Below are positions 1,610-20,876 of a DNA stretch of 20,876 nucleotides, in pieces. This DNA is from a virus. Lineage: Duplodnaviria; Heunggongvirae; Uroviricota; Caudoviricetes. The stretch is from IMG/VR virus record IMGVR_UViG_2537562015_000013. One strand, given 5' to 3'. The translations under genes were made by a program, and so were the position numbers. Every line of letters starts with the position of its first letter. The stretch's first letter is position 1. A model generated the notes under the pieces. That model had not been told where the DNA came from, did not search any database, and was given only the letters and a program-made list of their open reading frames with translations.

Positions 1610-1805
1610 CAGCTTGCGTAGCCCTGACAGTCTGTTTTGAGCGAACAGTGGACATTTTCAATGGCATTCTTGAGTAGGTTACGCTTAGACCAGAAGTAAG
1701 AGGTGATAGAATTATCAACAATACATAAAACATAGGGGATCCTTATTGATTTATTGATCTTGACCAACTTATGTGATGCAGTATGTCTTTAACTTGTATT
1801 ACTAT

Positions 1806-1829
1806 TATCTTTATCTTTATCTTTATCTT
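1806..1829. repeat. Perfect tandem hexamer repeat (TATCTT)x4 in the upstream region of the cargo gene
   Basis: Four exact copies at 1806-1811, 1812-1817, 1818-1823 and 1824-1829, about 40-65 bp upstream of ATG 1872. Confidence 0.9.
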
Positions 1830-1871
1830 GTTGTTTCTAATAAACTTATCTTATTTCAGAAAGGAGTTTCT

Positions 1872-3572
1872 ATGCATTTAGTCACGAAATCTTATTTCGA
1901 TGCCTTTTGCAAAGCATTCGCTGCGCCCTATGAGGAGACCAAAAATTTTGAGGCGTTTGTGAACTATTGTGCTTTTTCAAAATACTCAGGCGACAAAGTT
2001 GAGGTCAGTGATCTTGTGTATGAAGGCCCGGACCCTGGTATTGATGGAGCATTTTTATTTTTAGACGACAGAGCCATTTTTTCAACTGAAGAACTTCAGG
2101 AGATTTTCCAAAACTCACGTCGCGAGTTTCAAGTTTCATTAGTATTCACGCAAGCTAAGTCATCGGAGAAGTGGAGCAAACAGGAAATAGACTCTTACAT
2201 TGCGTCAATAAGAGATTATCTTTCACCAGCGCCACAACAACCCCACAGTGAATATCTAGCGGACTTTAAAAAAATGTTCAACTTGATATTTGCTAATATC
2301 GGCAGAGTCAAAAATGGCCTTCCAGACTTATACGCATATTTTTTTAGTGCTGCACAAAATACAGAGGCCAGAGAAATAAAAGCTGCATTTGCATCGGGTG
2401 AAAAAAGCTTAAAGTCACTCGGGTTTTCACATGAAACATCCTTCATTATGGCTCACAAAGACATGATTCATGAGCTTTGGCTTGCTGCGGAAGGTCCAAT
2501 AGAAGCTAAACTTCCTACAATAGGCTATGCTCCATTCCCAGCGGCCCCTAATATTAATAATGCCTATGTAGCTACAGTCAAAGCTCGTAGTTTTATTGAT
2601 TCTATACTTAAAGACAAAAATGGAAACCCTCGAAAAAAATTATTCGAAGAAAATGTTAGAGATTTTCTGGGAATTGATGGTGACGTAAATTCAGAAATTG
2701 CAGGAACACTAGATACTGATGGAAAAAAAGCAAGATTTGGTTTAATGAATAATGGAGTGACAATAGTTGCATCAAGCGTGAGGCCTGCAGGGCAAGAAAT
2801 TTTTATACGAGATTTTCAAATTGTTAATGGATGTCAAACGTCTAATGTTCTTATATCAAAAGACATTCAAGTAGATGAATCAGTTAGTTTAATGATTAAA
2901 TTAATTGAAACCGATGAGCCAGCGATCCTTGATGACATTGTACGAGCTACGAATAGACAATCTAAAGTTGAAGATGCACAGTTCATTTCAACGCTAAAAA
3001 AATTAAGGGAATTAGAACATTATTTTAATGCTAAAGGTGCTATTGAAGGAAATAAAATTTATTTTGAGAGAAGAAAGGGGCAGTATAGTTCAGAAAGTAT
3101 AGCTCCAGTACGCATATTTGATATCAGAGAAGTTGCGCGAGCATATGCTGCTATTGTTATGATGAGACCAGATTATTCCAGTCGTTATCCAAATAGGTTA
3201 ACTGGTGACTTACTTAATGAGGTTTTCTCTTCCGATGCCCTCGAGGATGATTATTATATATCTTGCTATTGCTTGTATAGGCTAAAGGCTCTTATCTCAA
3301 ATAAGAGGTTTGATGGGAAGTATTCAAAATTACGCTGGCATATTCTAACTGCTGCGTCAAAATACTGTGGTAATAATTATAAGGCTTGGGGGTTCAAAAA
3401 TAAAAATGAAGCTCTTCATAACTTATTCTCAATGAATGATGGGGAGTGGTTTGAAAAACTTGAGAGTTTAGTAAAAATAGCTATACCAGATCCGGATATT
3501 TCTCGAGACTTACTAAAGTCGCAGCCTTTAACATCAACGATTCTCAAAAGTGTTGATAGCGTACCTAAATAA
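1872..3572 (+). CDS. AT-rich cargo ORF, about 566 aa; putative AIPR-like abortive-infection (phage resistance) protein
   Basis: Long ORF with SD AAGGAG 5 nt before ATG 1872 (the track ORF from 1773 includes translation of the hexamer repeat and is unlikely to be the real start). Composition is clearly more AT-rich than the flanking phage genes. Contains FGLMNNGVTIV...FQIVNGCQTS, which I recall as resembling the conserved core of the AIPR family; this is unverified. Confidence 0.8.
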   Translation: MHLVTKSYFDAFCKAFAAPYEETKNFEAFVNYCAFSKYSGDKVEVSDLVYEGPDPGIDGAFLFLDDRAIFSTEELQEIFQNSRREFQVSLVFTQAKSSEKWSKQEIDSYIASIRDYLSPAPQQPHSEYLADFKKMFNLIFANIGRVKNGLPDLYAYFFSAAQNTEAREIKAAFASGEKSLKSLGFSHETSFIMAHKDMIHELWLAAEGPIEAKLPTIGYAPFPAAPNINNAYVATVKARSFIDSILKDKNGNPRKKLFEENVRDFLGIDGDVNSEIAGTLDTDGKKARFGLMNNGVTIVASSVRPAGQEIFIRDFQIVNGCQTSNVLISKDIQVDESVSLMIKLIETDEPAILDDIVRATNRQSKVEDAQFISTLKKLRELEHYFNAKGAIEGNKIYFERRKGQYSSESIAPVRIFDIREVARAYAAIVMMRPDYSSRYPNRLTGDLLNEVFSSDALEDDYYISCYCLYRLKALISNKRFDGKYSKLRWHILTAASKYCGNNYKAWGFKNKNEALHNLFSMNDGEWFEKLESLVKIAIPDPDISRDLLKSQPLTSTILKSVDSVPK

Positions 3573-3810: not shown

Positions 3811-4005
3811 TTACTCAATAACTCCAGCAAATCTGTATATCTTGCGTGATGCCCATTTATTTGGGCAGGATTTAATATCAGGATCTGGAAAGTCAGGCCT
3901 GTATTTCTGGCCAGTTCTCCTGTTTACGCTGTTCCAGCGAAGAACAGTCGATACTGAAACGCCACAGAAGTCGGCGACTTGTTTAGTTGTCATTAAGTTG
4001 TTCAT
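3811..4005 (-). CDS. AlpA-family small DNA-binding protein (excisionase-like regulator)
   Basis: 64 aa; HTH-like TTKQVADFCGVSVSTVLRW followed by a W...FP.P...W pattern resembling AlpA/Xis-type proteins; strong SD AGGAGGTG; start overlaps the stop of the upstream gene. Confidence 0.6.
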   Translation of the reverse strand: MNNLMTTKQVADFCGVSVSTVLRWNSVNRRTGQKYRPDFPDPDIKSCPNKWASRKIYRFAGVIE

Positions 4006-4625
4006 TACTTCACCTCCTGCGGCGGCTCCGGTAGCGGCATCCAGTGGGTTACTTTCGATGCCGGTTCTTCCCTATCGTCAGTAACTGCCCACCATTTGTT
4101 TCTCGACCAATCGTAATACCCTTCGAAGGTATCGCACTCAGTCCAGCCGTAAGGCTTCCCCCAACACCAAACATACTGTTTATCGTTCGGCATTCGCTCA
4201 CTACAGCTTATCCAACCATCCGGAGTTACTGGAGAGTTGCCCGACAGCTTGTTCAACTTGTAAGTCTGGCTTACAGGTTCGGCACCATGAAGCATGGCGG
4301 CGCGGCAGGCGTTCCAGCCTTCATCAAAACCGACTATGCCATTATTTAAAGACGGACGAGCATCTGGCACCACCGGCACTGGCTTGGCTATATATAGCGG
4401 CTGAACATACCAGCCCTTTGATAACCAACTGTCAGCAATGTTTTTACTCCTCGTTATTGCCGGAATACCTAAGCCATTTTCTGAATGCAGCCATGCCACC
4501 GGCTCCTCTTCTAGCGATGCCAGAGCAATTTCATAAGCACGGCGCTCAATATCGTCTCGAACCTCTAGGCTGCTGATTCGTTCTTTGATTTCTTTAATCA
4601 GTTCTTTATCGGTAAATGTGGTCAT
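4005..4625 (-). CDS. DUF551-like phage protein
   Basis: 206 aa; Trp-rich C-terminus WISCSERMPNDKQYVWCW...THWMPLPEPP typical of DUF551-type prophage proteins; SD GGAGG; translationally coupled to its neighbours. Confidence 0.65.
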   Translation of the reverse strand: MTTFTDKELIKEIKERISSLEVRDDIERRAYEIALASLEEEPVAWLHSENGLGIPAITRSKNIADSWLSKGWYVQPLYIAKPVPVVPDARPSLNNGIVGFDEGWNACRAAMLHGAEPVSQTYKLNKLSGNSPVTPDGWISCSERMPNDKQYVWCWGKPYGWTECDTFEGYYDWSRNKWWAVTDDREEPASKVTHWMPLPEPPQEVK

Positions 4626-4987
4626 TATGCTCCAGCCTCCGGTGCTTTTGGCATTACTGCCCAGTGAGTGATATTGACGTTTTCAAGGTCCCCGACCTGA
4701 AATGTCCACTGCCATTCTCCGGTTTCTTTTTGCCCCCATGTATACCAGAGAGAACGCCAGCCAATCAGCCAGCCTTCTCCATTAGCATCAAATAACAAAA
4801 CACTTTCATTTGCTGGTGGCAGTTCAGTTGACACTGGTATTACTTTGTTTTCCTGTGCTGCACATTTAGCTTCAAGCGCATCGAATTTACGCACTAGGTA
4901 TTCAGCATCCGTTTCATTCACTTTCAGATCTCGCGGTACACATCTCCCACGAAGAAACCCTTCCATTTCGAAAACATTCATGCGCAT
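4625..4987 (-). CDS. Second small DUF551-like phage protein
   Basis: 120 aa; C-terminus GEWQWTFQVGDLENVNITHWAVMPKAPE repeats the W...THW..P motif; SD GGAG; overlaps both flanking genes. Confidence 0.55.
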   Translation of the reverse strand: MRMNVFEMEGFLRGRCVPRDLKVNETDAEYLVRKFDALEAKCAAQENKVIPVSTELPPANESVLLFDANGEGWLIGWRSLWYTWGQKETGEWQWTFQVGDLENVNITHWAVMPKAPEAGA

Positions 4988-5514
4988 TTGCGTAACTCCG
5001 ATAATTCGTTAAAGCGTTCCATAAACATCCCGTAGGCATGGCCTGGAGCCAGTGGAATCACGTTGAACATCTCTGTTGCCGGGATACCTTCCAGCACAGG
5101 CCAGAAAGAGCCATCATCAAGCCCGAGATCGCGGCGTTCGGTTGCCAGCATAATGAGATCGGCATATTTCACTGGCGTGCTCATAACAGGAGGTAACCCG
5201 TATTTCTCACGGATTACGGCGTCTATTTTTTCTTCCATCCGTTTATAGTCAGGAAGAAGTCGTTTCAGTGGTGCGGGGATGTCCTGGCAATATGCTTCTG
5301 TTGCATCATGCATTAAAGCTTCAAAAGCAAATTCCTGCGGCACCAGCTGGCTGCAAAGCACCGCATGTTGGGCGACGCTGTAGAAGTGAGAAAGATGACC
5401 GGCAAAGCGGCAGATATTTGAAAGGGAAAACGCGATATCGTTAATAACGATGTCGTCTTTATTTATCTTGTCATAATAAAAATGCTTCCCGGAAAAAGTT
5501 TTAATAAATGACAT
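4978..5514 (-). CDS. HD-domain phosphohydrolase (YfdR-like putative 5'-deoxynucleotidase)
   Basis: H...HD signature (SVAQHAV ... LMHDATEAY). I place the start at the internal Met (MSFIKTF...) because GGAG sits about 8 nt upstream; the track ORF extends to 5577. Confidence 0.7.
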   Translation of the reverse strand: MSFIKTFSGKHFYYDKINKDDIVINDIAFSLSNICRFAGHLSHFYSVAQHAVLCSQLVPQEFAFEALMHDATEAYCQDIPAPLKRLLPDYKRMEEKIDAVIREKYGLPPVMSTPVKYADLIMLATERRDLGLDDGSFWPVLEGIPATEMFNVIPLAPGHAYGMFMERFNELSELRKCA

Positions 5515-5642
5515 TTTGTTCTCCACTTTATATGCGCTGCACCGCGCTGAATTTTGGTTAAAGAAAACCCTCGCCATCAGGCGATTATTGAGTTAATTAC
5601 GTTTCCATAAATGCCCCCGCAGGGGCATTTGCAGTAATGAAA

Positions 5643-6467
5643 TCAGGCGGTGAAAGTACCAATAAAGGTTTCTACTTTGCTGTCTTTGAATTTTTCAACA
5701 AGCAGATCACGAAATTCGTTAGCCATTTCTTCCTGCACTGCTTCCAGCTGAATAATGCGCAGAACCAGTACAGGGCGATCACCAGTGATAATGCTGAGGC
5801 GTAATTTAAACGGACGTTCTTTCAGGCCTTCAAACGGAACGCATTTAAACTCAAATGCTACTGGCATAATGTCTTTGGTTTTCGCTTCGACAGACTCCAT
5901 CAGAGAGCGTTTGCCGCTGAAGTCATTGTCTTCAAAATCAGCGGTCTGGTTTGCTTCAATCGTGATTTTACGGACCGCCGCAGCCGCTTTTGTTGCCTGA
6001 ATGGCGTCACCATTAGCATCAAAGCCCACAAGGTAGTCGGCCCAGTCTTCAATCCATTCTGCCAGTGACTTCTGGGAGTTACGCTCGCCGTTAACAGACA
6101 ACAGGGCAGAGAACGGTGCTGTCTTTTTCAGTTTGAGAGTGGCGGTGTTATCTGCGTGACCTGGTTCATCAATAGTACCCAGGTTAAGCACACTGACGGC
6201 TCGCATATTATCAGCATCGATAAAGCAGCGGGTGCCTTCATCTGCAAGATCTTTAGAATAACGGGTAAAGTCATCGATGCTGGCAGTGGAAAGCGCACCA
6301 CGGAAACGGAAGCGATTTAAATTAAATTTTTCCAGATCATGAATGCGGAAATTCTCAGGCAATGCCACAGCATCGGCACCAATCTTACTGATAATTTCAT
6401 TAACACCCTGAGCAGAAATAAGGGCATGGATTTGATTAATTGCGGTTGTGTCTAAGTTCTGAGACAT
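5643..6467 (-). CDS. YfdQ-family (DUF2303-like) prophage protein
   Basis: 274-aa ORF with an SD (GAGG) upstream; sequence resembles the YfdQ protein of CPS-53-type prophages as I remember it. Confidence 0.65.
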
Positions 6468-6532
6468 AATAAGTCCTCACTATATAAAGATATTCAGTGA
6501 TGAGATAAATAATCAGTTTATTAAAAACGATA

Positions 6533-6707
6533 TTAACGACCTGCTGCGCGGAGTTTTCCGTCAGGTTCACCGGCAAGAGTCAGTAATTGTCCCTGGTCTT
6601 CCTGCAGAATAGTCAGGCGACCACCGCGATTGACATACATCGGCGTTTCGGTGGTGTCTTCTTCGGAAATTTTCCCGCGGTTAGTCGGGCGAACATATGA
6701 GAGTTTG
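6533..6707 (-). pseudogene. 3' fragment of a leftward early gene truncated by IS1
   Basis: The reading frame runs straight into the IS1 left end at 6708 with no native start codon (the track ORF begins on a TTG inside IS1); it lies in the operon directly upstream of the YfdQ-like gene. Confidence 0.45.
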
Positions 6708-6762
6708 GGTGATGCTGCCAACTTACTGATTTAGTGTATGATGGTGTTTTTGAGGTGCTCCA

Positions 6763-7038
6763 GTGGCTTCTGTTTCTATCAGCTGTCCCTCCTGTTCAGC
6801 TACTGACGGGGTGGTGCGTAACGGCAAAAGCACCGCCGGACATCAGCGCTATCTCTGCTCTCACTGCCGTAAAACATGGCAACTGCAGTTCACTTACACC
6901 GCTTCTCAACCCGGTACGCACCAGAAAATCATTGATATGGCCATGAATGGCGTTGGATGCCGGGCAACTGCCCGCATTATGGGCGTTGGCCTCAACACGG
7001 TTTTACGTCACTTAAAAAACTCAGGCCGCAGTCGGTAA
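6763..7038 (+). CDS. insA: IS1 InsA protein
   Basis: 91-aa product [43 protein letters not shown]...; the A6C slippery motif (TTAAAAAAC, about 7012-7020) lies near its 3' end. Confidence 0.93.
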
Positions 7039-7460
7039 CCTCGCGCATACAACCGGGCAGTGATGTGATTGTCTGCGCGGAAATGGACGAACAGTGGGGC
7101 TACGTCGGTGCTAAATCACGTCAGCGCTGGCTGTTTTACGCGTATGACAGGATACGGAGGACAGTTGTGGCGCACGTTTTCGGTGAACGCACTCTGGCCA
7201 CACTGGCGCGTCTTCTGAGCCTGCTGTCGGCCTTTGAGGTCGTGGTATGGATGACGGATGGCTGGCCGCTGTATGAATCCCGCCTGAAGGGAAAGCTGCA
7301 CGTAATCAGCAAGCGTTACACTCAGCGCATTGAGCGACATAACCTGAATCTGAGACAACATCTGGCAAGGCTGGGACGGAAGTCACTGTCGTTCTCAAAA
7401 TCGGTGGAGCTGCATGACAAGGTCATCGGGCATTATCTGAACATAAAACACTATCAGTAA
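6957..7460 (+). CDS. insB: IS1 InsB reading frame (made as the InsAB' transposase by -1 frameshift)
   Basis: 167-aa frame [27 protein letters not shown]...HYLNIKHYQ overlapping the insA 3' end. Confidence 0.9.
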
Positions 7461-7801
7461 GTTGGAGTCACTACCCCGCCGCCGCAGTCCTTCATTTCTT
7501 ACCTGCTGACAAGTGGGTAACGCCACGCATGATGACGAGAACTACCGGAGTAAGCGAAGCCCGGTGCCAGTTAATACTGACTCAGTTAGTTCTGGCGGGT
7601 CTGGCGAAGGATAACGGCGGGTACGGGAATAAATTCAGACGCTGCCAGTAATGGCGGTTTCCTGCTGTGAAAATGGGCGGCTGGTGGGTGTTGGTAGCAC
7701 CTGCCAGCCATTCGCTCATGCTTACTGGTCACAAGCGAACCACGGCCCACTGCTTTAGCGCAAAAGCAGAGTGAGCCTACCAGAGTTACGCTTACTGATC
7801 C

Positions 7802-13831: not shown

Positions 13832-15339
13832 TGGCAATTCTTGATGATGTGATTGGCGTTTTTTCACCAGGATGGAAAGCGGCAAGGCTGCGTTCCCGGG
13901 CGGTGATCCAGGCTTATGAGGCCGTAAAAACGACGCGGACACACAAAGCCCGGCGGGAAAACCGAACTGCCGACCAGTTAAGCCAGTACGGGGCCGTGTC
14001 GTTACGTGAGCAGGCCCGTTACCTTGATAACAACCACGATCTGGTCATTGGTGTATTTGACAAGCTGGAAGAACGGGTGGTGGGGAAAAACGGGATTATT
14101 GTCGAGCCACATCCGGTATTACGCAATGGGGCCATTGCCCGTGATCTGGCTGCGGAGATTCGCACCCGATGGAGTGAATGGTCTGTCAGCCCGGAAGTCA
14201 CCGGGCAGTTTACCCGTCCGATGCTGGAACGTCTGATGCTGCGTACCTGGCTGCGCGATGGTGAGGTGTTTGCCCAGATGGTTTCCGGGCGCATAAACAG
14301 CCTGACGCCTTCTGCCGGTGTTCATTTCTGGCTGGAGGCGCTCGAGCCGGACTTTATTCCCATGACCAGTGATGAGAGCAACAGGCTGAATCAGGGCGTG
14401 TTTGTTGATGACTGGGGGCGTCCCGAAAAATATCTGGTGTATAAAAGCCGTCCCGTATCCGGACGGCAGATGGAAACCAAAGAAGTGGATGCAGAGCGAA
14501 TGCTGCATCTTAAATTTGTTCGCCGTCTGCACCAGATGCGCGGGACGTCTTTATTGTCCGGTGTGCTGATCCGCCTCAGTGCTCTGAAAGAGTATGAAGA
14601 TTCTGAGCTGACTGCAGCAAGGATCGCCGCTGCTCTGGGGATGTACATCCGGAAAGGCGACGGGCAGAGCTATGAAGCGGATGGTAATGGCAGCAAGGAT
14701 AAGGAACGCGAGCTTACCATTCAGCCAGGCATTATTTACGATGATCTGAAACCCGGCGAAGAAATCGGAATGGTGAAGTCGGATCGCCCCAATCCTAACC
14801 TTGAAACTTTTCGTAATGGTCAGTTGCGTGCCGTGGCGGCGGGCAGTCGTCTGAGTTTTTCCAGTACAGCGCGCAACTATAACGGCACTTACAGCGCCCA
14901 GCGTCAGGAGCTGGTTGAATCCACTGATGGCTACCTGATCCTGCAGGACTGGTTTATTGGTGCCGTCACCCGTCCGATGTATCGTGCCTGGCTGAAACAG
15001 GCTGTGGCATCCGGTGTTATCAGGCTACCCCGCGATCTTGACCGTTCTTCACTGTATACCGCGGTGTATTCCGGACCGGTGATGCCGTGGATTGACCCTG
15101 TTAAGGAGGCTGAGGCCTGGAAAATCCAGATTCGTGGTGGAGCGGCGACAGAATCAGACTGGGTACGTGCTGGTGGTCGTAATCCGGATGATGTCAAACG
15201 TCGGCGCAAGGCCGAAATTGATGAAAACCGCAAACTGGATCTGGTATTTGATACCGATCCGGCCAGTGATAAAGGAGGCAGCAGTGCCGCAACGAAACGA
15301 CAGGAGCCGCAGCACACCGACGACCAGTCCGAAGAATAA
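13831..15339 (+). CDS. Portal protein (lambda gpB-like)
   Basis: About 503 aa from ATG 13831 (SD GAGGT); the size and the A-W-B-C gene order match lambda head genes; the track ORF from 13759 overlaps gpW in the same frame. Confidence 0.85.
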
Positions 15340-15352
15340 TTCCTGGTTCAGG

Positions 15353-17215
15353 ATGCAGGCTGGTCACCAGAGTGACGCGGATATTTATATTTATGACGAG
15401 ATTGGTTTCTGGGGTGTTACAGCGAAGCAGTTTATCAGTGATCTGAATGCACTGGGCGATATCACCCACATTAATCTCCATATTAATTCACCGGGTGGCG
15501 ATGTCTTTGAAGGCATCGCCATTTTTAATGCGCTGAAAACACATGGTGCGTCCATTACCGTTTATGTCGACGGTGTGGCGGCGTCAATGGCGTCGGTCAT
15601 TGCGATGGTGGGAAACCCGGTCATTATGCCGGAAAACACCTTCATGATGATTCATAAACCATTTGGCTTTACGGGCGGTGATGCGGAGGACATGCGCACC
15701 TATGCCGACCTGCTCGATAAAGTTGAGGCGGTTCTGTTACCCGCTTATGCACAGAAAACCGGGAAAACCACCGATGAAATTGCTGCCATGCTGGCGGATG
15801 AGACCTGGATGTCCGGTGCCGAATGTCTGGCACATGGATTTGCTGATCAGGTAACGCCAGCCGTTAAGGCAATGGCATGTATTCAGTCAAAACGTACAGA
15901 GGAATTTAAAAAGATGCCGGAATCCATTCGAAACATGATTACTCCGCCACGCAACAGTGCTCCACGCGTACAGGATGATGAACCTGCAGCCTCCCGGACG
16001 CCAGTGCAGGCAGCAGCACCCGTGGTGGATGAAAACAGTATCCGTGCGCAGGTAGCCGCCAGTATCAATATCAAACCGGGCCATGATTATTACTTTTATA
16101 TCCGCAGTGTGAACACCGTTGGCAAATCGGCATTCGTGGAGGCTGTTGGTCAGCCGAGTGATGATGCATCCGGCTATCTGGATTTTTTCAAAGGAGAGAT
16201 AGGGAAAACCCATCTGGCTCAGGAGTTGTGGACGCAGATTGATAACGGTCAGCTTGCGCCTGACCTGGCTGAAATCAGGATGTCCATTACGGATGTCAGC
16301 AATGAAATCACGCAGACCGTCAATAAGAAACTGGAAGACCAGAGTGCAGCGATCCAGCAGATACAGAAGGTTCAGGTTGATACAAATAATAACCTGAACA
16401 GCATGTGGGCTGTGAAGCTGCAGCAGATGCAGGACGGACGCCTTTATATCGCGGGTATTGGTGCCGGTATTGAGAACACCCCTGACGGCATGCAGAGTCA
16501 GGTGCTGCTGGCGGCAGACAGGATTGCGATGATTAATCCTGCGAATGGCAACACAAAGCCGATGTTTGTTGGTCAGGGCGATCAGATATTCATGAACGAA
16601 GTGTTCCTGAAATACCTGACGGCTCCCACCATTACCAGCGGCGGTAATCCTCCGGCATTTTCCCTGACACCGGACGGGCGGCTGACGGCGAAAAATGCAG
16701 ATATCAGCGGTAACGTGAATGCGAACTCCGGGACGCTCAACAATGTCACGATTAATCAGAACTGCCGGATTCTGGGAAAACTGTCAGCCAACCAGATTGA
16801 AGGCGATATTGTTAAAACGGTGGGCAAAGCTTTCCCCCGTGACTCCCGTGCACCGGAACGGTGGCCATCAGGGACCATTACCGTCAGGGTTTATGACGAT
16901 CAGCCGTTTGACCGGCAAATTGTTATTCCAGCGGTGGCTTTCAGCGGTGCCAGACATGAACGGGAGAATAGCGATACTTATTCGTCATGCCGCCTGATAG
17001 TGAAGAAAAACGGGGCTGAAATTTATAACCGAACGGCTCTGGATAATACTCTGATTTACACGGGTGTTATTGATATGCCTGCAGGCAGTGGCGTAATGAC
17101 ACTGGAGTTTTCGGTATCAGCATGGTGGGTAAATGGCTGGTATCCCACAGCAAGTATCAGCGATTTGCTGGTTGTGGTGATGAAGAAAGCCACTGCAGGC
17201 ATCATGATTAGCTGA
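15353..17215 (+). CDS. Chimeric ORF: prohead protease (gpC/ClpP-like, clan SK) N-terminal domain fused in frame to the C-terminal part of a J-like tail tip host-specificity protein; probable deletion remnant
   Basis: N-terminus carries protease motifs ([22 protein letters not shown]). From about 16066 the sequence ([27 protein letters not shown] ... [39 protein letters not shown] ... MPAGSG) parallels the C-terminal region of lambda J as I recall it. Confidence 0.75.
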
Positions 17216-17233: not shown

Positions 17234-17260
17234 GGGCGCCAGAAATGGCGCCTTTTTTAT
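17234..17260 (+). terminator. Intrinsic terminator after the J-derived ORF
   Basis: GGCGCC-AGAAAT-GGCGCC hairpin followed by TTTTTTATTT. Confidence 0.7.
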
Positions 17261-17273
17261 TTGTGGAGTGAAT

Positions 17274-19619
17274 ATGGCAGTACAGATTTCAGGTGTGCTG
17301 AAAGATGGTGCGGGAAAACCAATACAGAACTGCACTATTCAACTGAAGGCAAAGCGTAACAGCACCACGGTACTGGTGAACACGGTGGCCTCTGAAAATC
17401 CGGATGAAGCCGGGCGTTACAGCATGGATGTTGAGCATGGCCAGTACAGCGTCACCCTGCTGGTTGAAGGTTTTCCGCCTTCACATGCCGGAACCATTAC
17501 CGTCTATGAAGGTTCCAGACCAGGTACGCTGAATGATTTTCTCGGTGCCATGACGGAAGATGATGTCATGCCGGAGGCATTGCGTCGTTTTGAGGCAATG
17601 GTGGAAGAAGCGGCACGCAACGCCGAAGCCGCCTCTCAGAGCGCAGCGGCGGCAAAGAAATCCGAAACTGCAGCGGCATCATCGAAGAACGCGGCGAAAA
17701 CCTCAGAAACGAATGCAGCTAACAGCGCACAGGCGGCAGCGTCCTCGCAGACTGCATCGGCAAACTCCGCGACAGCAGCCAAAAAATCAGAAACCAACGC
17801 GAAAAACAGCGAGACAGCCGCAAAGACGAGCGAAACCAACGCAAAGTCCAGCCAGACGGCAGCGAAAACCAGCGAAACGAATGCCAAAGCCAGTGAAACT
17901 GCGGCGAAAAATAGCCAGAATGCAGCAGCCGAAAGCGAGAGCGCGGCAGCCGGTTCTGCGACTGCAGCAGCTGGATCAGCAACTGCTGCGGCTAACAGCC
18001 AGAAAGCAGCGAAGACGAGCGAAACTAACGCAAAGTCCAGCCAGACGGCAGCGAAGACCAGCGAAACAAATGCCAAAGCCAGCGAAACTGCGGCGAAAAG
18101 CAGTCAGGATGCAGCAGCCGAAAGCGAGAGCGCGGCAGCTGGTTCTGCAAGTGCGGCGGCTGCTTCTGCCACTGCATCAGCAAACAGTCAAAAAGCGGCA
18201 AAAACCAGTGAAACCAATGCAAAGACAAGCGAGACTGCAGCGGCGAACTCGGCGCAAGCATCGGCAGCAAGCCAGACAGCAGCTAAAGCAAGTGAGGATG
18301 CAGCCAGAGAGTATGCAAGCCAGGCAGCAGAGCCGTATAAATATGTCTTACAGCCACTGCCTGATGTGTGGATACCGTTTAACGATTCACTGGATATGCT
18401 TGCTGGCTTTTCGCCTGGTTATAAGCAAATAACCGTAGGTGATGATGTTATTAAAATGCCATCCGATAAGGTTGTTAGCTTCAAACGCGCATCAGGTGCA
18501 ACATACATTAATAAATCAGGTGTATTAACCGTTGCTGAAGTTGACGAACCGCGATTTGAACGAGAAGGTTTGCTGATTGAAGGACAGAGAACAAACTATT
18601 TCAGAAATTCAAATACACCAGAAGCATGGAATAACACGGGTAGTGTGTCTGTTGAGTCGTTCGACAGTGATAAGGGGTTTAACTATGGAAGGATAACTGT
18701 TATTAATGAAAATCCGACAGCACAAGGATATCAGGCAATTGCTGTAAACACGAATGATGCTTACACCTGCCCGGCAGGTTCTTATACGACGATATCGTGT
18801 CTGACGAAAAGTGATAATTCCCGGTGTCGTGCAAGGTTCGGAAAAATGTCTGATAATGGTGCGTTTGTTTTTCATTCAGATGCAGTTCTGGATCCTGTTA
18901 CGGGAAATGTTGTTCATGGAAATAATGTGACGGTGACGGCAGAAAGAGTCGGTGAATGGTGGTTGTTTACCGCCACTCTTTTTGCAGATGCGGAAATGAT
19001 AATCAGCTCAAGATTTGAAATCCTGGCGATGCCTGGAATCAGTATTATCCCCAATGGCTCTACGTTAGATATTGCGATGCCTCAGGCGGAGATTGGGTCG
19101 TACAGGACGTCATTTATCATTACTGAAGGGGCTCCTGGCACTCGCTCCAGCGACATGGTGACAATACCTGTAAGAAACAATATTCACCGATTACCATTCA
19201 GTGCTCTTGTTGAAGTTAATAAAAACTGGGATATCCCTCCCAGCAAATCACCATTAATCTTTAATGTTAAAGATTATCAGGAAAATGGTCTGTTCACGCA
19301 TGGATTCCGTGGTAATAATTTCTCTGATGCCGGTTCTCCTTTTATTTCTATGGGAGGGTGTAATAAATATGTGGCAACAACCCAGAGGAAAATCATTTCA
19401 GGCTTCCGTTGTGGCGCTGATGGAGATGTTCAGGCCGTATGTAATGGTGAATTATCTGTTGCGGCAAAAACAACATGGACTTCAATTGTTCCACGGGCAG
19501 TATTGCGAATTGGAGGGCAGGGCACTAATGGGGAGTATCATCTTTTTGGTCATATCCGTAATCTGCGTATCTGGCATAAAGAATTAACTGATGCGCAAAT
19601 GGGGGAGAGTATTAAATGA
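17274..19619 (+). CDS. stf: Side tail fiber protein (Stf-like) with a repetitive Ala/Ser/Thr-rich shaft and a LamG-like C-terminal domain
   Basis: N-terminus MAVQISGVLKDGAGKPIQNCTIQLKAKRNSTT... closely matches lambda Stf as I recall it; the central region is built from AAKTSETNAK-type repeats; the C-terminus ends GEYHLFGHIRNLRIWHKELTDAQM, a pattern typical of LamG/ConA-like jelly-roll domains. Start placed at ATG 17274 (GGAG upstream). Confidence 0.88.
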   Translation: MAVQISGVLKDGAGKPIQNCTIQLKAKRNSTTVLVNTVASENPDEAGRYSMDVEHGQYSVTLLVEGFPPSHAGTITVYEGSRPGTLNDFLGAMTEDDVMPEALRRFEAMVEEAARNAEAASQSAAAAKKSETAAASSKNAAKTSETNAANSAQAAASSQTASANSATAAKKSETNAKNSETAAKTSETNAKSSQTAAKTSETNAKASETAAKNSQNAAAESESAAAGSATAAAGSATAAANSQKAAKTSETNAKSSQTAAKTSETNAKASETAAKSSQDAAAESESAAAGSASAAAASATASANSQKAAKTSETNAKTSETAAANSAQASAASQTAAKASEDAAREYASQAAEPYKYVLQPLPDVWIPFNDSLDMLAGFSPGYKQITVGDDVIKMPSDKVVSFKRASGATYINKSGVLTVAEVDEPRFEREGLLIEGQRTNYFRNSNTPEAWNNTGSVSVESFDSDKGFNYGRITVINENPTAQGYQAIAVNTNDAYTCPAGSYTTISCLTKSDNSRCRARFGKMSDNGAFVFHSDAVLDPVTGNVVHGNNVTVTAERVGEWWLFTATLFADAEMIISSRFEILAMPGISIIPNGSTLDIAMPQAEIGSYRTSFIITEGAPGTRSSDMVTIPVRNNIHRLPFSALVEVNKNWDIPPSKSPLIFNVKDYQENGLFTHGFRGNNFSDAGSPFISMGGCNKYVATTQRKIISGFRCGADGDVQAVCNGELSVAAKTTWTSIVPRAVLRIGGQGTNGEYHLFGHIRNLRIWHKELTDAQMGESIK
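17823..18200 (+). repeat. Two tandem copies of a 189-bp (63-aa) unit inside stf, within a larger degenerate repeat tract (about 17630-18300)
   Basis: 17823-18011 and 18012-18200 align with only scattered substitutions (KTSETNAKSSQTAAKTSETNAKASETAAK.SQ.AAAESESAAAGSA...). The overlapping track ORFs in other frames and strands here are repeat artefacts. Confidence 0.85.
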
Positions 19620-19897
19620 AAGATTTAACACTCAAATTTGCAGACAGGGCCGACTTTTCGGCCTTTATGGAGAGTATTGGCTATTATGATGACGAGTCGA
19701 TGCAGGATGATATTCTTATTGACGTGATAGGTAACGTGTACAAAGAAACCGGAGAACTGACTGAAGATGGCGAACCGGTATGTGTTAAGGAAGACGGATA
19801 TTTTGTAAACGTGCGCATCATTAATGATGTAAAAAAATCGTCAATATTCGATAAATACGCGGTTGTTGTTGAGCATCAACTTCGTGGCTGGATGTGA
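19616..19897 (+). CDS. Hypothetical acidic protein translationally coupled to stf (possible fiber chaperone or assembly factor)
   Basis: 93-aa ORF; its ATG overlaps the stf stop (ATGA); SD GGGGGAGAG; no motif I recognise; occupies the position of tfa but does not resemble Tfa. Confidence 0.5.
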   Translation: MKDLTLKFADRADFSAFMESIGYYDDESMQDDILIDVIGNVYKETGELTEDGEPVCVKEDGYFVNVRIINDVKKSSIFDKYAVVVEHQLRGWM

Positions 19898-19906
19898 GGG
19901 AGACAA

Positions 19907-20611
19907 ATGGCTACATCGACAGTAATTCCAGGAGATATCACCACGCTAAAGGGAGATGTCAGTAAAACTAAGGAAGATATTTCCTCAATTAACGGAAAAG
20001 TATCAACGCTTCAGACTGATATGACCAGTGCAAAGCAGGATATCAGCACCAGATACACAAAAACTGAAGTTGATAATAAGCTGAAAAACAAACTGGAAGT
20101 GAACGATCTGGAAAGCGGTCGTTATGGTGGAGATTTTTACCCGTTGACTGGCCGTGAAGCGTTTTATATGTGGGGATTGGGCACGACTACAGCGGCGGCA
20201 AACCTTTATCTTAATCCTGACCCTGCAATTTCGTCTGTACTGCGGTCAACATCGTCTATTCGCTATAAACATTCAGTAGAGACGATAGATTCAGAGCACG
20301 CCGATCTCATTTTCAGGATGCGCCCTGTGTGGTACAGGTCGCAATGCGAAAATGACAGGCGTGACTGGGGATTCTACGGATTGATTGCCGAGGAAGTAGG
20401 AGAAATTGCCCCTCAGTTTGTACACTGGCGACCAGCTAACGAAGATGATGCTCCTGAAGCTATTTCCAGCAATGGCCTTGTTGCCGAAGGTGTAATGTAC
20501 GAACGTCTGGTTGTTCCACTGATTCACCATATCCAGAAGCTGACTGAAAGAGTTGATGAACTTGAGTCAGAATTAAAGTTGTTATCCGTTTCCCGAAGCG
20601 ATATCGGATAA
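19907..20611 (+). CDS. Short tail-fiber-like protein with a C-terminal intramolecular-chaperone (peptidase S74-like) domain
   Basis: 234 aa; N-terminal heptad-like segment (TLKGDVSKTKEDISSINGKVSTLQTDMTSAKQDIS); C-terminal SSIRYKHS...PVWY...GLIAEEVGEIAPQFV...YERLVVPLIHHIQKLTERVDELESEL matches the Ser-x4-Lys and GxIAxEV pattern of auto-cleaving fiber chaperone domains; SD GAGGGA. Confidence 0.6.
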   Translation: MATSTVIPGDITTLKGDVSKTKEDISSINGKVSTLQTDMTSAKQDISTRYTKTEVDNKLKNKLEVNDLESGRYGGDFYPLTGREAFYMWGLGTTTAAANLYLNPDPAISSVLRSTSSIRYKHSVETIDSEHADLIFRMRPVWYRSQCENDRRDWGFYGLIAEEVGEIAPQFVHWRPANEDDAPEAISSNGLVAEGVMYERLVVPLIHHIQKLTERVDELESELKLLSVSRSDIG

Positions 20612-20621
20612 AGGAGGAGTA

Positions 20622-20876
20622 ATGGATATAACACCTTTCCTTCATGCGCTTTGTGCTGTGGCTGCGCAGCTACTGATTGGTCTTTTTACCGGGAACTGGG
20701 CTTACGGGGCGATAGCCGGTTGTACGTTCTTCATTGCGCGTGAACACACCCAGGCAGAATATCGCTGGATTGAAATGTTCGGGCATGGCAAGCGAATGAA
20801 TATGCCGTGGTGGGGCGGTTTTGATCCGCGCGCGTGGGATGTGGCAAGCCTGATGGATTTTGCTGTGCCGGTGGTG
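20622..20876 (+). CDS. Hypothetical membrane protein, 5' part only (runs off the window)
   Basis: Strong SD AAGGAGG before ATG 20622; hydrophobic N-terminus (FLHALCAVAAQLLIGLFTGNWAYGAIAGCTFFIA) followed by REH..EY and a W/G-rich segment; no track entry because no stop lies within the window. Confidence 0.5.
   Translation, partial: MDITPFLHALCAVAAQLLIGLFTGNWAYGAIAGCTFFIAREHTQAEYRWIEMFGHGKRMNMPWWGGFDPRAWDVASLMDFAVPVV

Follow-up and report, generated by a model that had tools for sequence, protein, structure and literature searches.

Gene content and layout of the distal end of the window

We analysed the genes at the distal end of a 20,876-nt stretch of caudoviral DNA (IMG/VR record IMGVR_UViG_2537562015_000013; hereafter, the window). 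There, the side tail fibre gene stf is followed by three genes, orfA, orfB and orfC, the last of which is cut by the window end. Reading the ORFs placed orfA, orfB and orfC where the first-pass annotation had them, and its description of three tightly spaced genes with the 93-aa ORF coupled to stf proved accurate: the operon order is stf, orfA, orfB, orfC, with tight coupling throughout. The TGA of stf overlaps the ATG of orfA in an ATGA at positions 19616–19619, an arrangement that implies translational coupling. The features are as follows; Stf residues are numbered from the 783-aa ORF counted from position 17268.

17234–17253, + strand: GC-rich terminator-like hairpin with a T-run, between a J remnant and stf
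17274–19619, + strand: stf, proximal side tail fibre; the RefSeq start is the ATG at 17274, and a GTG is present at 17268
Stf residues 3–133: lambda-type N-terminal anchor
Stf residues ~110–350: shaft of Ala/Ser/Thr-rich repeats
Stf residues 351–450: conserved neck
Stf residues 451–750 (18618–19517, + strand): hypervariable, lectin-like receptor-binding cassette
Stf residues 751–783: conserved C-terminal strand
19616–19897, + strand: orfA, 93 aa, pI 4.3, 20 acidic and 10 basic residues, alpha+beta
19907–20611, + strand: orfB, 234 aa, starting 9 nt past orfA, with a GAGGGAG Shine-Dalgarno sequence
19907–19954, + strand: orfB residues 1–16, anchor motif M-[AV]-T-x-T-V-I-P-x-D-I-[TK]-x-L-K
20249–20254, + strand: codons of the predicted orfB self-cleavage site, Thr115/Ser116, with Lys121 as base
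20252–20608, + strand: orfB residues 116–234, S74 intramolecular chaperone domain (Pfam PF13884)
20612–20617, + strand: AGGAGG ribosome binding site of orfC
20622–20876, + strand: orfC, first 85 codons of a 95-aa protein, running past the window end

The hairpin at 17234–17253 (18235–18254 in L008; window coordinate = L008 coordinate − 1001) marks the start of the stf transcription-unit context, and phage 21 has an annotated terminator at the equivalent position. No promoter-like site was found on the + strand within the module, including before orfA, orfB or orfC. Beyond orfC, the genome of the window has a terminator hairpin, after which comes an RT+SLATT gene pair. Decayed tfa fragments persist 3′ of the module in REL606, PhiR49_1 and 2G7b; hence, the module stands in place of tfa only in a positional sense.

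Stf combines a lambda-type anchor with a lectin-like C-terminal half

The N-terminus of Stf matches PF08400 (5.9e-67) and aligns end to end with the 94-residue lambda tail fibre chain in PDB 9e7m (E = 4.6e-48). The C-terminal half of Stf has no similarity to the tip of lambda orf-314, and the NCBIfam GTA_spike_fiber model, a GTA head-spike-fibre domain, matches residues 436–627. Identity to all homologues is 14–56 % across residues 451–750, as compared with 64–98 % in the flanks, giving a mosaic profile. We conclude that Stf is without lambda's Tfa-dependent, gp37-like tip, and has a lectin-like C-terminal half instead. The same GTA_spike_fiber domain relates Stf to the RcGTA head spike fibre (GhsA/GhsB), although the latter is mounted on the head rather than the tail. 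GTA head spikes are reported to be needed to bind the polysaccharide capsule of the cell (Westbye et al. 2016, as listed in PMC6854486), which, as far as that listing goes, would fit a glycan-binding role for the Stf domain.

orfA is a candidate assembly partner unrelated to Tfa

The orfA product belongs to no Pfam or NCBIfam family, its profile matched that of lambda Tfa with an hhalign probability of only 0.05 %, and comparison with solved tail-fibre chaperones gave neither a fold match nor a recognisable chaperone fold. A Tfa-type (Caudo_TAP) protein is ruled out by sequence, profile and fold, in line with the earlier view that the module lacks a Tfa-type gene. In function-related respects orfA does resemble a Tfa-type gene, since it lies directly 3′ of its cognate fibre tip and is co-inherited with it. 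The lectin-like C-terminal half of Stf and orfA occur together in ~180–220 phage genomes, which represent at least six lineages (lambdoids, phage 21, T1-like, Dhillonvirus, Queuovirinae, T5-like and rV5-like phages); 183 phage records were counted for orfA against 220 for the Stf C-terminus, with near-identical breakdowns by organism name. In many phage lineages, orfA and this type of fibre C-terminus accompany each other at a ratio of approximately one to one. We infer that orfA is a dedicated assembly partner of the lectin-type fibre, and a functional analogue of Tfa rather than a homologue.

The orfA product remains 91 % identical while the Stf binding region falls to 18–56 %, and its target is most likely the conserved neck and C-terminal strand of Stf, not the variable binding surface. 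Against this view, orfA diverges faster than the segments proposed as its target: between lineages, orfA is 38–53 % identical, as compared with 64–86 % for those segments. The lack of a recognisable chaperone fold similarly counts against a chaperone role. Decay of tfa is not proof that orfA replaces Tfa, since phages carrying the module could infect without working side fibres, as lambda PaPa does.

orfB has the features of a minimal distal fibre subunit

Residues 116–172 of orfB match Peptidase_S74 (PF13884; profile 1–57/58) at 27.1 bits, above the cut-off of 22, and the N-terminus gives heptad-type matches to the P22 tail needle, Lpp and the shaft repeats of T5-like fibres, bearing out the earlier description of a coiled-coil-like N-terminus joined to an S74 domain. 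The orfB sequence TSSIRYK (S116, K121) aligns, in the same register, with TSGIEYK in a T5-like fibre (8hqz_d) and ADLRAK in MYRF (7dc3). The Ser116/Lys121 pair is intact, with the catalytic Ser at the predicted cleavage site and the Lys five residues on.

The N-terminal anchor motif is common to the window orfB, the 345-aa allele of 2G7b, the 231-aa protein of PeterMerian and the 574-aa Gp24 of IrisVonRoten; alleles in the orfB slot range from 231 to 574 aa with this same anchor. Two families, phrog_4563 and phrog_19752, cover only orfB residues 1–32/34. The first-pass annotation had judged orfB far too short for a fibre; this is contradicted by full-length orthologues of ~230 aa in ~45 infectious coliphages and by the anchor shared with the 345- and 574-aa alleles. 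Judged by its sequence, orfB is probably a minimal distal fibre subunit consisting of an anchor, a coiled coil, a small tip and an S74 domain. The predicted cleavage would leave a mature part of 115 residues with a tip of ~50 residues (about 66–115), and a tip this small for a receptor-binding domain argues against orfB being a distal fibre.

orfC is a three-helix membrane protein

The complete orfC product has 95 aa in E1648, whose genome is identical, and 97 aa in REL606. Its AF2 model consists of three alpha-helices (pLDDT 92.5), which, together with the AGGAGG sequence, supports the original call of a membrane protein with a strong ribosome binding site. The loop AREHTQAEYRWI..FG.GKR.NMPWWGGFD.R.W is very highly conserved. 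The protein belongs to phrog_1443 and has no match in Pfam. An outer-membrane beta-barrel of the Lom/Ail type is ruled out by the all-alpha model and by the lack of an Ail/Lom family match. We also rejected a class I holin: there are three helices, but the protein ends in LLIR/LLVNRG and so has no charged tail. The prophage has its own lambda-family holin elsewhere, and an orfC homologue lies beside putative lysis genes in one Aeromonas phage only, those genes having been judged by sequence with no profile test.

The usual place of orfC is behind tail-fibre genes, and its upstream neighbour varies across several genera (orfB, orfA, tfa, J or tailspikes). The virulent T1-like and T5-like loci that we read do not contain it. 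Relatives occur in jumbo Aeromonas phages, and those in Sphingomonadales adjoin housekeeping genes, indicating that the family is not strictly tied to fibres. No PADLOC model matched orfA, orfB or orfC at E ≤ 0.01, a result that excludes only the defence families modelled, since PADLOC is not a catalogue of superinfection-exclusion proteins. Our best guess is that orfC has an entry-blocking or envelope-modifying role. orfC, the only one of the three genes that could be cargo, lacks a promoter-like site of its own and is coupled to the fibre genes.

The module is common and under purifying selection

The full orfA-orfB-orfC set is present in 13 % of complete E. coli genomes (723 of 5,426), and parts of it in 35 %; the full set is also found in infectious phages, e.g. 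PhiR49_1 and IdasGreatGrand. Relative to phage PhiR49_1, dN/dS is 0.26 for orfA, 0.15 for orfB and 0.40 for orfC. All three genes are under purifying selection, which, together with hundreds of conserved copies, indicates that they are real genes. We conclude that the module, which had been described as unusual, is a common, ordinary accessory set of a two-part phage side tail fibre.

Relationship to known fibre systems

The order of a fibre gene, a ~92-aa ORF and an S74-ended ORF recurs in IrisVonRoten (T5-like), PeterMerian (T1-like), and the lambdoids PhiR49_1 and 2G7b. The window module is a member of the two-part lateral fibre group, its three fibre-related proteins being homologous to those of IrisVonRoten and PeterMerian, with order and spacing conserved. 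In IrisVonRoten, Gp22 is the proximal fibre, Gp23 the small protein and Gp24 a T-shaped distal fibre; the gene order, ATGA overlap and 9-nt spacer are as in the window. Window Stf is 42.5 % identical to Gp22, neck and lectin-like domain included, orfA is 38 % identical to Gp23, and orfB and Gp24 have in common the N-terminal anchor motif and C-terminal S74 domain. However, the 574-aa Gp24 has two receptor-binding domains whereas orfB has only a ~50-residue tip, the fibre N-terminus of IrisVonRoten is not of the lambda type found in the window, and orfC is absent. Humolli et al. 2025 (PMC11990801) used AlphaFold-Multimer to model Gp24 of IrisVonRoten (Bas32) docked on Gp22, with the C-terminal galectin-like domain of Gp22 protruding as a possible extra receptor-binding domain. 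The text of that paper is inconsistent, referring to Gp22 in one place and Gp23 in another, and says nothing about the small protein.

The closest full-length relatives outside the lambdoids are in Drexlerviridae (T1-like) lateral tail fibre loci, e.g. bas05_0031/0030/0029 of PeterMerian (Bas05), with identities of 43 % for the fibre C-terminal half, 47 % for orfA and 56 % for orfB. The small ORF (92 aa) and S74 ORF (231 aa) are similar in length to those of the window. Unlike the window prophage, PeterMerian is virulent, has another fibre N-terminus and lacks orfC; its depositors label the orfB orthologue ‘chaperone’. With lambda stf-tfa, the window shares the Stf N-terminal anchor and the position after J, but lom, which precedes stf in lambda, is absent, and the distal half of lambda orf-314 and Tfa are unrelated to anything in the module. 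Unlike lambda, the window would have a different assembly helper and an added second fibre subunit. Finally, the S74 domain and shaft repeats of orfB align with the L-shaped fibre of the T5 pb1/DT57C LtfA type (PDB 8hqz), with Ser and Lys in register; those fibres are at least 1,000 aa long and attached directly to the tail, whereas orfB, at 234 aa, would be an add-on subunit.

A probable two-part side tail fibre, and alternative readings

The window probably ends with the distal genes of a lambdoid late operon, which specify a two-part side tail fibre together with accessory proteins. Stf joins the tail tip via its lambda-type N-terminus and continues through the conserved neck to the hypervariable lectin-like domain; orfA would act as the assembly factor of the fibre or, alternatively, as a joint protein. 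The 16-residue anchor of orfB may dock on the end of the Stf shaft, as in the published Gp22/Gp24 prediction for a homologue that is 27–43 % identical. Beyond the anchor, orfB would form a putative trimeric coiled coil and then the ~50-residue tip. By analogy with its family, the S74 domain would bring about trimerisation and folding of the tip before releasing itself by cleavage at Thr115|Ser116, yielding the 115-residue mature protein. The resulting fibre would have two binding sites, the lateral lectin domains and the distal tip. orfC, which shares the transcript of the fibre genes, encodes a small inner-membrane protein.

For orfB, a different role would be that of a trans-acting chaperone for Stf trimerisation, discarded afterwards and never a fibre subunit. 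The database names ‘putative lateral tail fiber chaperone’ and ‘chaperone of endosialidase’ fit this role, the BASEL annotators having applied such a name to the orthologues in PeterMerian and KarlJaspers; at 115 aa, the mature part is short, and the gene occupies the position of lambda tfa. However, S74 domains, such as those of endosialidase and T5 pb1, act in cis on their own polypeptide, proteins of 345 and 574 aa with full receptor-binding domains occupy the same slot with the same anchor motif, and the N-terminal 60 residues of orfB resemble shaft repeats of a solved T5-like fibre. Moreover, this Stf type and orfA are found without orfB in phage 21 and rV5-like phages, indicating that Stf has no need of it. 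We therefore regard a trans-acting orfB as improbable. Far harder to credit is that orfB is merely a leftover of recombination, in which only the 3′ end of a longer fibre gene survived. Its match to phrog_3299 covers only the C-terminal sixth (positions 1147–1384 of 1385 columns), and the locus is visibly mosaic with surviving tfa fragments nearby; yet orfB has a Shine-Dalgarno sequence and a start codon of its own, with conserved spacing, a conserved motif that starts exactly at residue 1, a dN/dS of 0.15 and full-length orthologues in ~45 infectious phages.

We doubt, though less strongly, that orfA is a structural joint instead of a chaperone, one that would be retained in the fibre and, like T4 gp35, connect Stf with the distal subunit. 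Its gene sits precisely between those of the proximal and distal fibre, at a spacing conserved across lambdoid, T1-like and T5-like phages, orfA does not follow the variable binding region, and one depositor named the IrisVonRoten homologue ‘tail fiber protein’. Nonetheless, orfA is kept in phage 21, NC101 and rV5-like phages, where the following distal subunit gene is absent, it diverges faster than the segments it would bridge, and a joint of this kind has no structural precedent. The first-pass annotation had suggested that all three genes are morons acquired after stf, i.e. host-range or superinfection-exclusion cargo. This is unlikely: orfA and orfB are parts of the fibre apparatus, found inside the fibre operons of strictly virulent phages, none of the three genes is preceded by a promoter-like site, and PADLOC returned no match. 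The suggestion retains force for orfC alone: this small membrane protein is encoded last in the late operon, follows varied upstream genes in several genera and is missing from the virulent loci that we read; Cor, Llp and HK97 gp15 are precedents. Even so, orfC is 93–99 % conserved beside variable receptor-binding parts, which argues against receptor-matched exclusion, and its relatives in jumbo Aeromonas phages and beside housekeeping genes also speak against cargo. The first-pass annotation had named three findings that would undermine its reading; homology of the 234-aa product to distal fibre tips was found, whereas a Tfa-like orfA and a Lom-like orfC were not.

Starting from the two-part fibre, a more ambitious reading is possible, and we offer it tentatively. 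orfA might found a new class of fibre assembly or joint proteins, unrelated to Tfa, gp38, gp57A and the cis-acting S74 domain, and having lectin-type lateral-fibre domains as obligate partners in at least six lineages of siphoviruses and myoviruses; orfC, in turn, might be an inner-membrane protein coupled to the fibre, with its near-invariant loop directed at a conserved component of the envelope or of the entry process, serving either exclusion or the protection of progeny phage.

Implications

The prophage in the window is without tail genes and carries a ClpP::J fusion; given this deletion, the module is inactive here, a relic. Its probable importance is as a store of fibre cassettes that incoming phages could acquire by recombination. 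orfA and orfC are two very common, strongly conserved small proteins. In E. coli genomes, the labels ‘hypothetical protein’ and ‘chaperone of endosialidase’ could be replaced in thousands of cases, with a structural role for orfB and a partner role for orfA. Lambdoid side fibres are swapped to retarget phages and phage-derived DNA-delivery particles. Transplanting a lectin-type Stf would probably require orfA as well, and orfB for the second binding site, but not tfa.

Four genes at the end of the window look like one late unit

The last 3.6 kb of the window holds four tightly packed genes on the + strand:

17274-19619, +: stf, the side tail fibre gene; its TGA stop codon overlaps the orfA start codon (ATG)
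19616-19897, +: orfA, 93 aa, acidic (pI 4.3)
19907-20611, +: orfB, 234 aa; starts 9 nt past orfA, with a GAGGGAG Shine-Dalgarno sequence ahead
20622 to past the window end, +: orfC; starts ten bases past orfB, with AGGAGG ahead

These coordinates and the stop/start overlap agree with the first-pass annotation, which described three close-packed genes after stf, the first of them coupled to it. A simple scan found no promoter-like site on the + strand within the module and a terminator-like hairpin 5' of stf, and a hairpin can be read from the sequence immediately 3' of orfC; hence, stf to orfC look like a single late transcription unit. Comparison with the infectious lambdoid phage PhiR49_1 indicates purifying selection on all three downstream genes, with dN/dS of 0.26 for orfA, 0.15 for orfB and 0.40 for orfC.

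All three are carried, at a threshold of at least 80 % coverage, by 723 of the 5,426 complete E. coli genomes, and 1,910 of these genomes have at least part of the set, mostly orfC. The same four genes occur in the infectious lambdoids PhiR49_1 and IdasGreatGrand, and also, with another orfB allele, in 2G7b, Tritos and HannyBb. Given this distribution, "unusual", the word first applied to the module, is wrong.

The copy in the window belongs to a defective prophage

The window sequence is 100 % identical to an E. coli E1648 prophage sited between yjjG and prfC, and 99.7 % to the prophage at the DLP12 site in E. coli B REL606. Directly before stf lies a single ORF (15284-17215) in which a ClpP-type head maturation protease (residues 31-191) runs in frame into the C-terminal part of tail tip protein J (domains Ig_J_second, Phage_Tail_Tip and Ig_GpJ_C). 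This fusion is a deletion joint, at which the genes between the protease and distal J have been lost; in lambda this stretch comprises the rest of the head genes plus the tail genes. Because of this deletion no tail can be built, and the prophage is defective. We conclude that the window holds another, inactive, copy of the module.

Two phage types make up the prophage mosaic: a lambda-like late region and a CPS-53-like early region (about 4000-7500; yfdS, yfdR, yfdQ and a truncated yfdP) that carries an IS1 insertion. An AIPR-family (abortive-infection-type) gene (1773-3572) lies directly past the prophage integrase gene (386-1609). In E1648, an RVT_1 reverse transcriptase gene overlapping a SLATT_5 two-TM effector gene lies 3' of orfC, followed by dinI. 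The pair is on the minus strand at 22018-23917 of the E1648 locus, about 110 bp to 2 kb past the window end, at the prophage edge by prfC. It looks like a reverse transcriptase-based defence pair, and is the true post-fibre "cargo" of the E1648-type genome; in REL606 this position is instead occupied by a tfa remnant, appY and ompT.

Stf joins a lambda-type N-terminus to a different distal half

The N-terminus of Stf is of the lambda type: it matches PF08400 and, from end to end, the lambda fibre chain in PDB 9e7m (94 residues). The distal half is not similar to orf-314, the Tfa-dependent tip of lambda. A GTA head-spike-fibre domain (NCBIfam) covers residues 436-627, and the C-terminal half as a whole is 35-50 % identical to lateral fibres of T1-like, Dhillonvirus, Queuovirinae, T5-like and rV5-like phages. 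Segment-wise comparison shows this half to be built as cassettes:

Stf 351-450: conserved neck, 68-86 % identity in every lineage
Stf 451-750: hypervariable binding region, 14-56 % identity, even among lambdoids 92-98 % identical elsewhere
Stf 751-783: conserved C-terminal strand, 64-82 % identity in every lineage

In the T5-like phage IrisVonRoten, the homologous region of the proximal fibre Gp22 is described as a galectin-like domain that protrudes at the fibre C-terminus and may serve as an additional receptor-binding domain (Humolli et al. 2025, PMC11990801).

The fibre shaft (residues 110-350, window about 17600-18320) consists of Ala/Ser/Thr-rich near-repeats (AAKTSETNAKSSQT...). The repeats also create spurious long ORFs, for example at 17560-18432 (+) in another frame and at 17636-18076 (-) on the complementary strand. 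Note that a coliphage-type Stf C-terminus and orfA also appear in MG065692, MG065654 and MG065676 ("Campylobacter phage" C13, C15 and A116) and in some "Listeria" records, at identities equal to those of rV5-like and T5-like coliphages; the labels or sequences of these records are probably wrong.

orfA is a candidate fibre helper that is not of the Tfa type

The orfA family is small: a search of 1.84 billion proteins, clustered at 50 %, gave 50 representatives. Pfam and NCBIfam contain no family for it, the only PHROGs it matches are unnamed, and neither these databases nor profile and fold comparison yielded known relatives. An AF2 model (pLDDT 74), for which the alignment search was run from the homologue in the T1-like phage PeterMerian, gives a small alpha+beta fold. 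Matches of 2,928 and 1,797 aa in the representative search reflect short repeated motifs, and were rejected as homologues. Homology to Tfa, the assembly protein of the lambda fibre tip, was one of the outcomes that the first-pass annotation said would together count against its view of the module. The orfA profile does not resemble that of lambda Tfa (hhalign probability 0.05 %), and there was no Tfa-type family match and no fold match. We conclude that orfA is not a Tfa homologue.

The distribution of orfA follows that of the fibre. By tblastn, it occurs in 183 phage records versus 220 for the Stf C-terminal half, and the organism-name breakdowns of the two sets nearly coincide. At every locus inspected, and in most rows among the matches listed, orfA directly adjoins the fibre gene at its 3' end. 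Its genomic behaviour is that of a putative cognate fibre helper. Since orfA is kept where no orfB follows (phage 21, strain NC101 and rV5-like myoviruses), its partner would be Stf rather than orfB. Moreover, orfA keeps 91 % identity between phages that share only about 18-56 % in the Stf binding region, so it probably acts on the conserved neck and C-terminal strand of Stf rather than on the binding surface. We infer that orfA is an assembly factor; the main alternative is a joint protein that is retained in the fibre.

orfB is a minimal fibre

The 234-aa product had been described as a coiled-coil-like N-terminus with an S74 domain, and this description holds: the N-terminus gives heptad-type matches, and Pfam Peptidase_S74 matches residues 116-172 above the curated cut-off. 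The accompanying claim that it is far too short for a fibre fails, as orthologues of the whole protein, about 230 aa long and 56-96 % identical, occur in about 45 infectious coliphages. We conclude that orfB is a minimal fibre. At the same position, 2G7b has a 345-aa protein and IrisVonRoten the 574-aa T-shaped distal fibre Gp24. orfB and these alleles share their first ~16 residues (M-[AV]-T-x-T-V-I-P-x-D-I-[TK]-x-L-K) and all terminate in an S74 domain, with differing middles. Such an arrangement, with a constant anchor, an interchangeable middle and a chaperone acting in cis, is typical of a receptor-binding subunit.

Residues 5-65 and 109-222 of orfB align, respectively, to the shaft repeats and the chaperone domain of a solved T5-like L-shaped fibre, and Ser116 and Lys121 line up with the S74 catalytic pair and with the human MYRF domain. 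Domains of the S74 family trimerise their protein and then cut themselves off. By analogy, the domain should trimerise orfB and then self-cleave, leaving a 115-residue mature subunit. The name "lateral tail fiber chaperone" given in databases is probably no more than an echo of what Pfam calls this domain. The match of orfB to phrog_3299 is not counted here as a Rosetta-stone fusion. The orfB homologue of IrisVonRoten is predicted to dock on the proximal fibre (Humolli et al. 2025, PMC11990801), and the lambdoid version may likewise dock on Stf.

orfC encodes a conserved three-helix membrane protein

The AGGAGG ahead of orfC and a model with three long helices (pLDDT 92.5) support the proposed membrane protein with a strong ribosome binding site. 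The same model bears on whether this is a conserved lom-like gene, another outcome raised against the first view of the module: orfC is clearly not Lom-like. The family exceeds 450 cluster representatives and has no Pfam family; no relative was found in the PDB by structure or sequence, and there was no PADLOC match. The helix 2-3 loop, AREHTQAEYRWI..FG.GKR.NMPWWGGFD.R.W, hardly varies from Escherichia to Aeromonas and Comamonas, unlike the transmembrane helices, which are variable. Polar residues D2, H8 and Q16 of the first transmembrane helix are invariant in 67 sequences from several genera, which may point to a ligand site or to an oligomeric pore.

In phages and prophages, orfC typically lies directly past host-recognition genes, often so close that start and stop codons overlap or adjoin:

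3' of orfB: the window
3' of orfA: phage 21
3' of tfa: Halomonas phiHAP-1
3' of a tail fibre gene: Aeromonas and Leclercia P2/HP1-like prophages
3' of J and a small ORF: Comamonas
3' of an S74 tailspike gene: Desulfovibrio
3' of a LamG-domain protein gene: Chelativorans

It was missing from the virulent T1-like and T5-like module loci inspected. orfC is 93-99 % conserved among the lambdoids compared, whichever binding domains adjoin it, which argues against a receptor-matched exclusion factor. Nor is the family strictly tied to fibres, since relatives occur in jumbo Aeromonas phages, beside genes read as lysis genes in one Aeromonas podophage, and beside nadB/sdhA-like, pnp, ligA and deaminase genes in Sphingomonadales and alphaproteobacterial MAGs. 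These last copies, beside housekeeping genes, also led us to reject the idea that orfC is always phage-linked. Our guess is a late-acting inner-membrane role, such as an entry block or envelope modification.

Immediately past orfC, on the opposite strand, phage 21 and the E. coli NC101 prophage carry the sitABCD iron/manganese transporter operon; here the cargo in the post-fibre position serves metal uptake. A 2.8-kb contig of a Gram-positive Collinsella sp. MAG encodes an orfC 98 % identical to the E. coli version; this contig probably derives from an E. coli prophage through mis-binning or contamination. Two Desulfovibrio piger ATCC 29098 scaffolds (L051 and L059, 877 bp) hold only orfC-like fragments, 55-60 % identical.

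The module probably replaced a lambda-type tip

Short, decayed tfa fragments lie downstream of the module in REL606 (21936-22046 of locus L001), PhiR49_1 (8383-8641 of L002) and 2G7b (8587-8885 of L004), with a ybcY-like methyltransferase gene in between in the latter two. Given these leftovers, we read the distal half of the fibre and its helpers as having displaced, by recombination, an ancestral tip of the lambda type together with its tfa. Of the initial proposal of an unusual cargo module in place of tfa, the facts of the module stand and the framing holds only in part, orfA and orfB being part of a lateral-fibre system. We found no experimental work on orfA, orfB or orfC; the papers covered were the phage 9g paper, the Eligo preprint on STF engineering and the proteomics paper on rV5. 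We conclude that stf with orfA and orfB is a widespread, already annotated two-part lateral-fibre system, exchanged horizontally among lambdoid, T1-like and T5-like phages. Both orfA and orfC are common and strongly conserved.
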